DNA of 64,000 nt from Escherichia coli (GCF_009931435.1 NZ_CP043414.1); one strand, 5' to 3'; positions 12,001 through 18,000 are shown, counted from the first letter of the stretch. A program made the numbers.

Positions 12001-15000
12001 GTTGTGCGTGTTTCTGGGCCTGTTCAGAGCGGTTTTCTCCCCGGATATGTGAATACACCGCGCTGGTTGCCTGTGGTGGCAGTGCGTGGATCATCAGCGA
12101 CACAAACGCCGGAAGGTTCCAGCCGACAGGTGCAGCAACGGAGAGTACCGGAAATGATGAAGGGAACAGGGTTGCCACCCGGGCTGTAACCGTCGCCAGT
12201 GAGAGCGCCTGCTGACGGGACGGGCATTTTTCTGTGGCATTCCATTCTTCAGCAGGAAACACGCGATCGGCATGGCTGAGAACAAACAGAAAACGCGAGG
12301 GATCTGCGCCTTCATTCAGTAAAAACTGATGCATGGTAATGTCGGCGGCATACGCGCGTTCATCTGCCCGCAGGATCCAGATAATCAAATCCACTTCCGG
12401 CAGTAACTGACGGTAAAGCGCCCGGTATTCCTGATCATGTTGCGGCGTCTCTCCAATGCCGGGCAGATCGACCAGCGTCATTCTGCGTTCACCGATCTGC
12501 AGGGTAAGACGATGAGCCTGGCGGGTGCAGCCGTTCAGGGGATGCGTGGCACAGATATGGGACTGAAAAATAGCATTACACAGGCTACTTTTGCCGGTGC
12601 CGGATTTACCCATAATGCCAATCACGGGTTCGTAATGAATAACGCTGTGGAGATGTTCAAGAATTTTCTGACGAATTTCTTCAGGAAGAAACGTCAGATA
12701 TGATTTCACTTGTGCGGAGAGGGAAGAATGGCTGAATGACATACCGGTATCCTGTTGATTTCACTGAACCGGATCACACTAATCCGGTTTATCATTCAGG
12801 TAATATGGGCGTGAAAAATGATGGAATGTCTGAATTACGGACATTATTGTTAAAGTGTAATGGAGTATGGCGTCAGTTTTTCAGAACGGGAACTAATGAC
12901 ATACTGCTGTTTCAGGAGATGAGAGGATGACCGGACGTAAAAACAAATGTGTCAGAAAAAATTGTAACAATCAGGTTTTCTCAGTAAAAATGGCAGTGGA
13001 GAAAAGACTGTGCAGAAAACATTATGAGAGGTTTTGTGAGCTCAAAAAAAGAAGAGAGCAAAATCCTGTTCACAGATTAAATGAAGCATTGCCAAGAAAG
13101 GTAGAAGGCCCAAAAAGAAAGAGGAAATTAGTAAAAGAAAGAGAAATCATTAACAGCAGGACGAAACATAAACAGGAGCAGGGACCATCTCTGGCTGAAC
13201 TTAATAAAAAAGTTCGTGAGATACTGAAAACCCCGGCATGGAGAACGCTGGAAACGAGAATTCGAAGAAACGGTATCACATTTAATTCAAAAGCAGAGTT
13301 AGATGCGCTTTCTGAACTTTATGCAATTTATTCATGGGTTTCATATTGCAAACGGTGCGATAATTATTCTGTGTGGTTTTTGAATTGTCCGGATGTAAAT
13401 ATAAATCTTCATGTGTGCGAATGCCGGTCTTCTGAAAGCGATTGTTATCTGCCATCCCGTTTTATTATTCTTCCAGCTCCATTAAGGCAAAAAGTAAAAA
13501 GAAAATACTCTGCTAATTCGTCTGGGGTATCAGGACATAATGATTCAAAAAGTCTTTATAAGACAGTTTTGTCTGTTTGTGGTGGGAAAAGAGAAACCGA
13601 ATTGTTCTTTTATTCACTGCCAGTAAAGACTAATCATCATCCTTACTGGATTAAAAGTGGTGTGGTTAAAAGATTTCCTCCTGTTTTTGGTTTGTTGTTT
13701 TATGAACAGGAAAGATTAACAGGAGGTGTTTTTCGTTATGTGTTGATAAGGTTTTATAATACTTTTAAGGAGAATTTGTTTTTTGTTGAGATTGTCTCGT
13801 GCTGTTTTCTTGTTGAGCTTTTTCATGATATTGATTCGTTTTTTATAAATCAACGATTAAGTAAGCTGGAAAGTTTTATAGATAAGTGGAGGGAGGGTAA
13901 AGAAATCTGGATAAAAGCATATCTACAACTGATACATAATACATTGGGAATAACTGAAACAGAAAAACTCGTCAATCTATATAATTCATTTTTTACTGAT
14001 AAAGTGGTTATCTGGGATGAATCAGTAAAAAAAGTTAAGTGGATTTATGAGAAATAGTACCATTTAACTGAAAGCCACCATAACGTCTTTTTGACTACAT
14101 CCATGATAATGAGTCTCATTTTGATTTCGTTTTTTTGTTCCGGGAAATTTTCCGAACATCAGTGATAATGAGGGTTTTGTTGTTTTTGTTTCTGCAATGT
14201 TTGAGGGCTGTTCCTGGAGATGATTCGTTGCTTGTGAGCAAGAGGTGGTCCGCTTTACTGGACAAGTTTTGCATTTGTTGAGTGGTGAAATGGAAGTAAA
14301 AAGAGCCCCTTTCTGGCAATGACTGAAAAAGTCAGTAGCGTGTGACAGTAAAAACTAACATAAAGTGATTATCGTATGATTATGACAATGACTTATAACT
14401 TTTATGAAAAGAACAACAGAAACTATGAAACCATAGCAGATTCCTGAGACCATGTTTTTTGAGGTAGAGAAAATAATTCAAGAGTAAACCAGTTTGTTTT
14501 TTGATCAGTAAAGAACCATGCCTGATGTGAAAACGGGTAATCAACATTCAGTCTGCATGAGTGTCTGAGAATGTTGCTAATGTCGGTATGATACTATATA
14601 CACATATTTTACTAAGTATTTTTACTAAGCATTTCAGTAAGTGTTATACACGTATTTTCTACTAAGTGTTTTACCAGACATACACGTATTTTCATAAACA
14701 CTTCTACAAGTGTTTTCATTAAGTATTGTTATACACATTGCTTTGTCTGACACACATCCGGTTTAGTAAATCTTTACGTTAGCTAAAATCAGTTTAAAGC
14801 TGCTACAAAGCAATCTTTCCTGTTTAAGCAATCAAGATGACATTCTGTTTTTCTGAAGTTACGTTTAACCTTTTCTGAGTTTTTGTGTTTTTGGTCGTTA
14901 ACCGGAGAAAAGTATCTTTACGTAAAAACGCAAATCCGACTGAGATAACCTGGCGTGATTTACGGAGTGCTTACGACGATTTAGTTAAATGGTTTTATGG

Positions 15001-18000
15001 ATGATTTTGTAGCGATGAGGTTGATGAGATGATTAACTGGCCCTGGTGTTTTTTTTCTCAGAGCAAGGCTCTTTTCAGAAAAAGCGTGATGATTGGTTCT
15101 GGTGTTTTGATTCAGATGAGGTTTACGTTATCGATGGTTAATCGCTTTTATGGTGCGTAGTGAAACGTAACATTTTCAGGATGAGAAAATCGATTCTGAT
15201 GTTAGTGGTTTTTGTTCTTGGGGTGGGGTTATCTGTAAACAGGTTTTAAACGCGCTATTCGGCTCTGTGATTGAGTTGTGTGGTTAAGCTATAGGTTTTG
15301 GTGTTGTTGTTGATTCACAGCGCCAGAAATCGTTCTGATTGCGTTTTTGATGTTTTGTTTGCACGTTCTGTTGATCCGTTTCCCTTCTGACTTTTCTCGT
15401 CGTCCATGCCGTTTTTAAATTCATTTGCTGTTGTTGTGTTTTTTTACCATCTTTTCGTTTGTAGGGGATTCCATTTTTATCCGGAGTAGGTTGTGTTGCT
15501 CAATGGTGGGAGTTCGTAAAGTTTTACCGCGGTGATTAATGATGTGAAGTCAATCCAAATCAATGGAGATCTCTCATCATGAATCAACCAATACACAATG
15601 CTTACTGGTTATCCCGTTTTGAAAGTATTCTCAACAGTGCCCTGGCGCAACACCGTGCCGTCTCGTTAATCCGGGTGGATTTACGTTTCCCTGAGTATAT
15701 GCCTGCCACCATTATGGATACCGATTTAGATTCAGCGGTGATTTCTCGTTTTTTCGAATCCCTGAAAGCAAAAATTCAGGCTTACCAGCGACATAAACGA
15801 CGTGCCAACAAGCGTGTGCATGCAACCACTCTGCGTTATTTCTGGTGCCGGGAGTTCGGCAAGGAAAAAGGCAGGAAACATTATCACGTGATATTACTGC
15901 TCAACAAAGATACCTGGTGCTCGCCAGGGGATTTCACCGTTCCTTCTTCGCTGGCGACGCTGATCCAACTGGCATGGTGCAGTGCTCTGCATCTTGAGCC
16001 CTGGCAGGGTAATGGACTGGTTCATTTTTCCAGGCGGACGCCTTTCCGTAAACCGACATCATCCGATGCTCGCCCTTCTTCCGATGACACGCCTTTACCT
16101 GGTGGATGTTCTGATACCCGGAAGGATTCTGACAAAAAGTCTGGTGGATCCGCTGTGCTCTGGATCAAGCGTGGTGATGTAGAAGCGATGCAGAAAGCCA
16201 TGGAGAGAGCCCGTTATCTCGTGAAGTATGAGACGAAGCAGCATGACGGTTCTGGTCAACGTAATTATGGTTGCAGTCGTGGAGCGGGGCGTCTACTGGA
16301 TGGCAGGTGAACCCTGTAAAACGGCATCCGGTGCCTGAGCGTATGCCACGGTAGGGCGTCAGCCAACGCCCTTACCTCGTATTCTGATCACTCATTCTGA
16401 AGTCATGCAACGGTATTTTTATCTGCTTCCGCTCTTGGAAACACTCCGTCGGTAAAAACTTACCGCCTTGATTAATGATGTGAACCGAAGTCAACGGAGG
16501 TCATTCACCTTAAACCCACCTCAGGAATTTTACACCTGTCAGGTCTCCTGACTGTCCTGGCATACGACATCTGCCATCCCCGGTTCCACGGTTATTACAT
16601 CAACAACCTCTGTACACGACGCCTTCAGTTTCACAATACGCTCGTCTTTCGCTGGCGGGGATGCGTCGTGCGTTTCTATATGGAGCATATCTTATGAATG
16701 GTATCCCTCATTTCGACTATAGCCTGGCGCCCTTCTGGCCGTCTTATCAGAACAAAATCATCGGTGTTCTCAACCGTGCGCTGCGTGAACAGTCCTGCTC
16801 CCGGGTACGGCGGATCCTGCTTCGTCTGCCATGTGAATATGACACTACCTTCAGTAGCAGAAAGACCTGGTTTGGTATGGACTTTATCGAAACTGTCAGT
16901 GCGCTGATGAATGCAAACCCCGGACGTGATCTCTGCTGGCTCCTGACTCGTCATCCGGAAAAGCCGGAATACCACGTGGTGCTGTGCGTCAGACAGGAGT
17001 ATTTCGACGGCCCCGAACTGGATCGGTTGATACTGGATGCCTGGAGCAACGTACTGGGCTTCGCGTCACCGGGTGAAGCGGCACCGTACCAGAAGCAGAT
17101 AACACGGGATGTGGTGCTGGACAGTCGTTCACCGGACTGCGAAGACATCCTCAAAGAGCTGATATGGGCATTCAGTGATTTCGCCCGCGATCGTCGTGGT
17201 GTGCGCGATCCGGAAGCCCGTTACCTCGTCGGTAATCCCTGGTATCCCGTAGCAGGCCAGCTCTGAAAGCACAGTTCAGCAGATTCACCCGCATTTGCCC
17301 AACCTTCATAAATCTCACAAAGGACATTCTGACCATGTTGACCACAACAAGCCACGACAGCGTATTGCTGCGTGCTGACGATCCCCTGATCGACATGAAC
17401 TACATCACCAGTTTCACCGGTATGACCGATAAATGGTTTTACAAGCTGATCAGTGAAGGCCATTTTCCTAAACCCATCAAACTGGGTCGCAGCAGCCGCT
17501 GGTACAAAAGCGAAGTGGAGCAGTGGATGCAGCAGCGAATCGAGGAGTCACGAGGAGCTGCTGCATGAAACGTGTTGTAATACCGGTACGCTGGCGATGT
17601 GCAAAATGCCGGCGCTGGTATTGTGGAAATCAGCCCTGTCCCTGGTGCTGGCGACACTCTCGTTCATCTTTCTGCTGATACCCTCCTGTCAGTAGCGGGT
17701 TGTAGCTCTTCCCTGACCGATTTGTCATTCCACTCTTATTGTTTATAACGGGTATTGAGCCGGTACTGGCGTGTTTTCCTGCATGTTTGCACCGGTTCAG
17801 TAAAATTCAACAGGATTCGAAAAGGAACATTTCGTGCAAATAACCGAAGCATTACTTTCAGAGCCAGGGGAAATCCGGCGTTTTGTTCAGCAGGCGGTGG
17901 ATCACTGGCCGCATCTGTTGGCATTTCACTTCACGCTCCATTCGGCTGAAGAAAACATCAACGGGCAACGGGTTCAGACATTCTGTACTTCCTTTTACCG

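Follow-up and report, generated by a model that had tools for sequence, protein, structure and literature searches.

A conserved promoter-like box and a direct-repeat array form the core of a gene-free stretch ahead of the Gp2–AlpA module of an Escherichia coli island

What is the role of 1.5 kb of DNA that carries no recognisable gene and lies directly upstream of genes for a Rep-like nickase and an excision-factor-like protein? We asked this question for positions 14058–15578 of a 64,000-nucleotide (nt) stretch of Escherichia coli DNA (NZ_CP043414.1; hereafter the window), which holds part of a chromosomal integrative island of the CP4-57 type that adjoins setC, at the selC site. The gene-free stretch separates a gene for a 376-amino-acid (aa) Cys-rich protein from a gene of the 'inovirus Gp2 family', which is followed further downstream by an AlpA-like gene. 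On the basis of clustered repeats and of the rolling-circle activity ascribed to Gp2 proteins, an initial annotation had suggested an origin-like or regulator-binding region, or a small RNA. Here we find that the stretch contains a core of about 170 nt, made up of a cis element that recurs across the Gp2 family and a dynamic repeat array, in front of an uncharacterised HUH–AlpA module. Sequence comparison leads us to favour, at a probability of roughly 0.5, the view that this core is the H-NS-silenced promoter-operator of the module.

Results

The core of the stretch comprises the following features, in window coordinates.

14574–14600, plus strand: promoter-like box, with TTGCTA at 14574–14579, TGTCGG at 14581–14586, TATGAT at 14587–14592 and TATATA at 14595–14600
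14598–14745, plus strand: degenerate direct-repeat array of about 9–11 units in the same orientation, each of 11–13 bp, in the classes ATACACRTATTTT and TACTAAGYRTTTY
14696–14715: palindrome AAACACTTCTACAAGTGTTT, in which one inverted repeat unit faces the next unit
14729–14737, plus strand: DnaA-box-like TTATACACA within the last ATACAC unit, the only match to TTWTNCACA in the region

All of the repeats named in the initial annotation were found where it had placed them, with TACTAAGTATTTT at 14610, TACTAAGCATTTC at 14623, TACTAAGTGTTTT at 14660 and ACACGTATTTTC at 14648 and 14682, as was the palindrome. One correction concerns their arrangement: the ATACACRTATTTT and TACTAAGYRTTTY classes interleave as a single array, with T-tracts every 12–14 bp or multiples thereof (measured spacings of 12, 13, 23, 14, 20 and 24 bp, which is near, but not at, 10.5 bp). 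The array takes up about 150 of the 1519 bases. Its repetitiveness is well beyond chance: the segment 14595–14745 contains 34 repeated 7-mer pairs, compared with a mean of 4.8 (standard deviation 3.1, maximum 22) in 2,000 dinucleotide shuffles. No other 150-nt stretch in the 64 kb is as self-repetitive. With a weight matrix derived from the units we obtained 8 same-strand matches within 120 bp; nowhere else in the window do matches cluster.

Comparison with related elements bore out the conservation of the repeats. Every E. coli copy retains the core, with gain and loss of whole units that yields arrays of about 100–210 nt, and counterparts exist in distant genera. The position of the array never changes; in all E. 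coli copies examined it directly follows the box. Pairing within the palindrome is not strictly kept, because its arms vary in other copies (AAACAATTC, AGACAATCA). The DnaA-box-like TTATACACA, which is identical to the R2-type DnaA box of oriC, is lost in most other copies (replaced by CTGTACACA, or deleted) and is for this reason probably incidental. The ATACAC units resemble DnaA boxes at 8 of 9 positions.

Immediately before the array, the window carries TGTCGGTATGATACTATATAC (14581–14601), its version of a box that is kept as two alleles in every E. coli copy examined and that recurs throughout the family. To describe the relatives we used nine look-ups of genomic context and a scan of one genome per species (64 loci), for which a 9-sequence alignment served as the starting point. 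On the Gp2 strand, the family-wide box reads TGTYGG-N5-6-TAWTAT(AT). In its strict form, with TAWTAY as the second half, the pattern is present in 24 of 67 loci, no more than 600 nt upstream of Gp2 and usually 60–450 nt before its ATG; elsewhere it has one match in 1.08 Mb, and on the opposite strand of the same AT-rich spacers it has none. Among gamma-proteobacteria, the genera with the box are Escherichia, Tatumella, Kosakonia, Budvicia, Limnobaculum, Proteus, Providencia, Brenneria, Tolumonas, Aeromonas, Vibrio, Marinomonas, Rheinheimera and Alcanivorax. The copy in the window meets a relaxed pattern only, with 8 nt between the halves and TATATA as the second half. Within the box lies an easily melted TAWTATAT tract, and RNAalifold returned 0 consensus pairs for a conserved hairpin around it in 19 box regions.

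Several observations connect the box with transcription. The sole sigma-70-like match on the plus strand of 13800–15800, CTGAGA-16-TATGAT (14565–14592), falls at the box, albeit with weak hexamers. In the K-12 prophage CP4-6, yagK belongs to the same gene family and has a box, TGTTGGATAGGTATTATATAAT, 198 nt before its ATG (locus L012, 9125–9147, minus strand), inside a published predicted promoter. The yagK/yagL spacer binds RpoD holoenzyme and H-NS in genomic SELEX (systematic evolution of ligands by exponential enrichment), and the predicted promoter is TTTAGA-16-TATAAT (Shimada et al., PMC3946193). In this sequence TGTTGG forms the start of the 16-nt spacer and TATTATATAAT supplies the −10 element. 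A promoter is the simplest reading of the box, given this overlap in K-12, the sigma-70-like match in the window, the fixed orientation and the usual distance to the ATG; TGTYGG looks like a protein-recognition site inside that promoter. The K-12 locus is otherwise unlike the window in that its spacer spans only about 270 nt, has two inverted repeats in place of a direct-repeat array and lacks the 1-kb extension. By eye, the inverted repeats of the yagK 5′ leader are TACTCTTACT/AGTAAGAGTA and TACGGTCT/AGACCGTA. Upstream of yfjJ there is a degenerate copy of the box, TCTTGATAGGTAATATAT (L011, 7466–7490).

We examined constraint in an alignment of twelve diverse E. coli copies, which divides the remainder of the stretch into the following segments.

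14058–14468: cassette-linked spacer that travels with the 376-aa gene and is gone or replaced where the cassette differs
14469–14580, plus strand: start of the module common to all E. coli copies, forming the flank upstream of the box
14746–15121, plus strand: G+T-rich spacer or putative untranslated leader, common to all copies
15122–15467, plus strand: replaceable spacer segment
15468–15578, plus strand: conserved segment adjoining Gp2, with the Shine–Dalgarno sequence GGAG at 15565–15568

Copies with the 376-aa gene are 95–100% identical over 14058–14468, and only in those copies are the small open reading frames (ORFs) of this segment intact; in L008–L010, L014, L015 and L017, which have other cassettes, the segment is unalignable (34–43%). 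Homology with these divergent copies begins at about 14469, and identity over 14469–14580 is 67–81%, below that of the box and array. The segment 14746–15121 is 75–82% identical in divergent copies, which is below the third codon positions of Gp2 (83–94%). In L010, L015 and L017, 15122–15467 is replaced by unrelated DNA with a 176-aa ORF on the minus strand, a truncated remnant in the case of L017 (insert sites L010 3777–4307, L015 3801–4331 and L017 4083–4259). From 15498 onward the sequence is nearly invariant, and the last 84–111 nt before Gp2 also match many other E. coli Gp2 paralogues that do not have the long region.

Taken together, the shared noncoding parts are 75–90% identical and do not exceed the third codon positions of Gp2. 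This rules out purifying selection on the region as a whole, and we attribute the bulk conservation to recent common descent. The exception is the core of box and array, where the array is 88–97% identical in several copies whose flanks are 67–82% identical; in L009 and L015 array identity falls to 75–77%. The earlier proposal of an origin-like or regulator-binding region can thus be retained for the core (14581–14600 and 14598–14745) but not for the other 1.3 kb or so, which shows no demonstrable constraint. On these alignments only about 170 bases look functional, and the remaining 85% or so is probably dispensable spacer or leader.

In other genera, the Gp2–AlpA module follows a common layout. 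A leftward block, often headed by a gene of about 320 aa, faces an AT-rich spacer of 400–550 nt, which is followed by Gp2 and then directly by a highly conserved AlpA; this order of leftward block (GTPase, antirestriction, DUF932, RadC, CbtA), spacer and Gp2–AlpA is seen in Escherichia, Brenneria, Providencia and Proteus. The E. coli spacer is an enlarged version of this 400–550-nt spacer. Gp2 is only rarely found without an AlpA-type gene. A protein search showed that the 243-aa form of Gp2 is essentially confined to E. coli, with forms of about 190 aa, 35–60% identical, in other genera.

Significant arrays of direct repeats recur in these spacers. Tolumonas has AAGTGTTTTTC five times at an exact period of 11 bp, with the same core as the window's AAGTGTTTT; Providencia has (C)TATGTGTTT, Proteus ACGTAGTRTTT at a period of 12 bp, Vibrio an array at a period of 11 bp, Brenneria ACACATTTTA and Aeromonas TATACAC. 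The cores GTRTTTT and TACAC recur among these distant arrays. The arrays of relatives occupy one or the other end of the divergent spacer, and in Tolumonas, Proteus and Brenneria they lie 150–450 nt from the box, beside the leftward gene. In Budvicia the box is directly followed by about 18 copies of an 8-bp microsatellite unit, TAATACTG (L029, 3560–3700), and in Limnobaculum by five 36-bp units (L039, 3534–3720). Unrelated sequences seem prone to expand as repeats at the site that immediately follows the box.

The module and its neighbours in the window are as follows.

minus strand: leftward block typical of CP4-57-like islands, with a CbtA/YeeU toxin–antitoxin, a RadC-like JAB protein, an antirestriction protein, DUF932, an HTH/WYL regulator and a YfjP-type GTPase
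12927–14057, plus strand: 376-aa Cys-rich gene without a family match
15579–16310, plus strand: Gp2-like gene ('inovirus Gp2 family', 243 aa; YagK_YfjJ_C / REP_ORF2-G2P)
between the Gp2-like and AlpA-like genes: 201-aa ORF
17335–17568, plus strand: AlpA-like gene, 77 aa, of the winged-helix excision-factor type (hmmsearch E 4.7e-45), labelled an HTH regulator in RefSeq

The premise that Gp2 proteins are rolling-circle initiators was substantiated at the level of the fold. The Gp2-like protein has the motifs RVDL, HYHV and YLVKYETK, and no variation in the HUH and Tyr motifs is seen across the family. Its model has an HUH Rep nickase fold, closest to Rep nickase and origin-binding domains that include those of RepB of pMV158, in complex with its direct repeats, and of Rep of adeno-associated virus (AAV). 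The modelled fold makes the assignment as an HUH Rep-like nickase sound at this level. Relative to the norm of about 190 aa, the HUH and Tyr motifs of the E. coli gene are separated by an additional segment of about 45 aa with many Ser, Pro and Asp residues. It is within this insertion that many alleles in E. coli (the 214-aa forms; P0067, P0081 and P0093 were compared) are frameshifted, with loss of the catalytic Tyr motif; such alleles still keep the noncoding region. For the AlpA-like protein, the nearest solved relatives are an AlpA-family protein (8c3t), TorI (1z4h) and RdfS, and a comparison with Pseudomonas aeruginosa AlpA chains found no similarity at E up to 10.

YagK/YfjJ ('inovirus Gp2') genes belong to the core genes of islands of the P4-integrase/AlpA type. 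Carriers include CP4-6 and CP4-57 of K-12, pathogenicity islands of uropathogenic E. coli, the SRL island of Shigella and islands of Pseudomonas. Among 72,556 plasmid records only 66 hold a Gp2 homologue, and all of these are large or resemble chromosomal fragments, so we conclude that no small replicon relies on the family. A phage collection yielded one unverified contig and one weak match. Two candidates for a small replicon were considered and rejected: the 4.5-kb 'Escherichia phage ECO111 5-P' is an unverified low-coverage contig, and an 11.7-kb Salmonella 'plasmid' is a linear record with a gene content that looks chromosomal. Searches of the accessible literature gave no function for the YagK/YfjJ protein and no account of its upstream region; they likewise gave no AlpA DNA motif for E. 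coli-type elements and nothing on PDB entry 8c3t.

The stretch is noncoding and AT-rich, as had been claimed. Its single ORF of at least 60 aa is 14116–14319 on the minus strand, and G+C is 0.35 over 14001–15000 (about 35–37% for the stretch), compared with about 0.50 for the window. None of the small ORFs stays intact in all 12 copies. Nearly all listed RefSeq records leave the stretch without annotation, with only sporadic small or inserted 'hypothetical protein' calls; the small one annotated in CFT073 within 15122–15467 is not conserved. We also considered a pseudogene remnant, and rejected it when tblastn with the proteins of alternative cassettes and with the ~320-aa leftward gene of relatives gave no significant match in 14058–15578; a 91-aa ORF of low complexity, which the window carries in frameshifted form, was the sole match, and a spurious one.

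In the stretch we obtained no Rfam match at E up to 1, no predicted terminator-like site or attenuator and no match to the IHF consensus. Sliding-window folding of both strands gave z-scores that scatter around 0 (three of about 100 tests were near −3), without excess structure and without the hairpins of a single-strand promoter or initiation site. The plus strand of 14000–16000 is strongly G+T-rich, with an AT skew of −0.23 and a GC skew of +0.12 at 15001–16000. A comparable skew on the Gp2 sense strand is present in the spacers of relatives from Providencia, Tolumonas, Chimaeribacter and Shewanella, but not Proteus. Such a G+T-rich, C-poor sense strand could help a long leader to escape Rho.

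Of 5426 complete E. coli genomes, 1877 have the stretch, 417 of them at full length. The region has no homology in phages, and four plasmid records, all from E. coli, match it, some of which at least look like island or chromosomal DNA. The region matches strain FORC 064 at 99.9% identity and CFT073 at 98%. Between the GTPase and the noncoding module is a slot for swappable cassettes (window 12927–14057; L008 727–2462; L009 351–2164; L015 1415–2638), which consist of a 376-aa or 407-aa Cys-rich gene, or of a 316-aa gene with a 262–284-aa gene on the minus strand; the latter is distant kin of the ~320-aa gene that faces Gp2 in other genera. Just downstream of the Gp2–AlpA module, the island has its own H-NS-family protein and a frameshifted ProQ/FinO-family gene (window 18384–18895 and 19619–20053, after the FORC 064 annotation), both of which could have the AT-rich control region, or the RNA transcribed from it, as their target. 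In the distal island, G+C reaches 60–68% at about 49000–55000 and 57000–64000, far above the E. coli norm, from which we conclude that these are foreign insertions; the FORC 064 island differs from the window at both places.

Discussion

Our preferred account of the core is an H-NS-silenced promoter-operator. The box would be the promoter of a rightward operon of Gp2, the 201-aa ORF and AlpA, normally silenced by H-NS bound to the AT-rich DNA, and the repeats would be a cooperative binding array for a small DNA-binding protein encoded by the island. The likeliest binder would be the AlpA-type winged-helix excision factor, with the HUH Gp2 protein as the second candidate, and binding beside the start site would set the Gp2–AlpA module ON or OFF. 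The 0.8-kb G+T-rich, C-poor stretch up to the Gp2 start codon would then serve as a long untranslated leader, or be plain spacer, in which insertions and replacements are tolerated, and the first 0.4 kb would belong to the neighbouring gene cassette.

This account is consistent with the layout of the locus: the array abuts the region's only plus-strand promoter-like site, it has at least eight same-strand units at spacings near, but not at, 10.5 bp (in Tolumonas the spacing is exactly 11 bp, five times), and an excision-factor gene is present in the same module. Arrays are found at either of two divergent promoters in relatives, and an operator therefore fits better than an origin. P2 Cox at its Cox boxes and P4 Vis at PLL act like Apl of phage 186, whose sites lie between pR and pL, at early promoters. 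Common to these operators and the window are a small winged-helix excision factor, encoded in the operon that it would control, and several repeats of one orientation, roughly one helical turn apart, at or between divergent early promoters of an integrative element. For Apl, binding to direct repeats between the divergent early promoters is documented, and excision-factor sites are described as direct repeats one helical turn apart (PMC7498355). The window island resembles P4 in being of the P4-integrase/AlpA type. It differs from the phage operators in its spacing (12–14 bp versus 10–11 bp), in its two interleaved unit classes, in that binding is putative here, in having no matching cluster near the attachment-site (att)/int end of the FORC 064 island, and in the first gene of its operon, an HUH nickase-like gene that P2, 186 and P4 do not have. 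Silencing by H-NS is to be expected from the K-12 SELEX data and from the alpA promoter of the CP4-57-like CP4So of Shewanella, where the AT-rich DNA upstream of alpA controls excision and is bound by H-NS, which silences the promoter (PMC8034616). Neither a Gp2 gene nor a repeat array is reported for CP4So.

A number of findings weigh against a promoter-operator. A conserved −35 element is lacking, no more than 12 of 25 family boxes match sigma-70 even weakly, and the −10 candidates in the window are imperfect. The invariant TGTYGG, which precedes the −10-like hexamer by about 5–6 nt, is no determinant of sigma-70 recognition. The box stays beside Gp2 where alpA lies upstream (L039, L052 and L075), and its similarity follows Gp2 more than AlpA (partial r of 0.56 versus 0.16, values that are confounded by physical linkage). 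AlpA is nearly invariant between genera while array sequences differ, although the GTRTTTT core recurs. The window ends short of the att/integrase end; a scan of the FORC 064 island with the weight matrix gave no second, tight motif cluster near its integrase/tRNA-Sec end. Finally, at about 980 nt the leader would be unusually long, and it contains no predicted terminator or attenuator.

The main rival reading is that box and array form a rolling-circle double-strand origin, where the Gp2-like HUH nickase would bind the repeats, nick in or beside the box and either replicate the excised circle or yield single-stranded DNA; we consider this possible but doubtful. An overlap of promoter and origin, as in geminiviruses, is conceivable. 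RepB of pMV158 and AAV Rep each recognise short direct repeats in tandem close to the nick site, which makes it attractive to see the box as the nick region and the array as the binding locus, and the intact catalytic motifs and the modelled fold of Gp2 speak for the same idea. No conserved noncoding element other than the box is linked to Gp2; the box remains with it when alpA moves, co-varies with it and contains the easily melted tract. According to a preprint (10.1101/364505), the copy number of an integrase and of a Gp2-family gene increased in gut isolates of E. coli Nissle, which could hint at extrachromosomal amplification of such an element. Set beside a double-strand origin of the pMV158 type (a nick locus with 11-bp direct repeats), the candidate nick motif lacks a hairpin, but origins of the phiX174 and Ff types need none, so that only some subtypes are excluded. 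There are further differences from both pMV158 and the AAV Rep binding element with its terminal resolution site: the distance between array and box varies among relatives, reaching 150–450 nt in several, the element resides in the chromosome and no small plasmid has a member of the family as its sole Rep. Moreover, many E. coli Gp2 alleles lack the Tyr motif and the region is kept nonetheless, and in K-12 the homologous box coincides with a predicted promoter, within a spacer bound by RNA polymerase. Of about the same, or slightly lower, probability is the specific version in which the core is the origin of a widespread, unrecognised module for replication or DNA processing, with a minimal HUH Rep (YagK/YfjJ), co-expressed with AlpA, that nicks TGTYGG..TAWTAT and replicates excised CP4-57-type islands or releases single-stranded DNA. 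A theta-type iteron origin, with Rep-bound iterons, DnaA boxes and an AT-rich unwinding element, would account for the direct repeats, the AT-richness and the one exact DnaA-box-type TTATACACA at 14729. We nevertheless regard it as highly improbable, because the units are degenerate and 11–13 bp rather than 17–22 bp long, the linked protein is an HUH nickase and no iteron-binding Rep of the winged-helix kind, other copies have not retained the DnaA box and no plasmid uses the module.

It is unlikely that the stretch is functionless save for an ordinary promoter, with repeats that are slippage-prone AT-rich filler spread by common descent and hitch-hiking. Noncoding identity no higher than that of Gp2 third positions would be expected in that case, as would the free replacement or deletion of segments and the plain microsatellite at the same place in Budvicia; what it leaves unexplained is that box and array are better conserved than both flanks in several copies, that the array always comes directly after the box in E. 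coli, and that arrays recur at the homologous place in distant genera with the cores GTRTTTT and TACAC. We think it more improbable again that the box is a loading site for a processive antiterminator of the Q-like or AlpA-like kind, where RNA polymerase would be modified and then read through the leader into Gp2–AlpA and further, in a positive-feedback switch. The TGTTGG..GGTA part of the K-12 yagK box does occupy the same position of the predicted promoter as the AlpA binding element in the promoters of alpB and PA0807 of P. aeruginosa, and the window has a long leader, but P. aeruginosa AlpA is a much larger, Q-like antiterminator to which the 77-aa island protein, an excision-factor winged helix, has no detectable similarity; in addition, no terminator is predicted in the leader and the resemblance between the motifs is short. 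A small or long structured regulatory RNA, the remaining suggestion of the initial annotation, has very little in its favour beyond a long, strand-asymmetric, G+T-rich noncoding stretch and the ProQ/FinO-family gene in the island: Rfam, terminator and folding searches all gave negative results, and conservation is no higher than at neutral sites.

The promoter-operator thus stands as our favoured explanation of the core, and about 85% of a conspicuous 1.5-kb gene-free stretch is probably dispensable spacer. Were the core an origin, islands of this type, which are present in about one-third of E. coli genomes and are often called cryptic prophages, would be transiently autonomous replicons. With a short conserved cis element and an adjacent array now defined, there are concrete targets for work on how these islands switch to excision and on their replication after excision.

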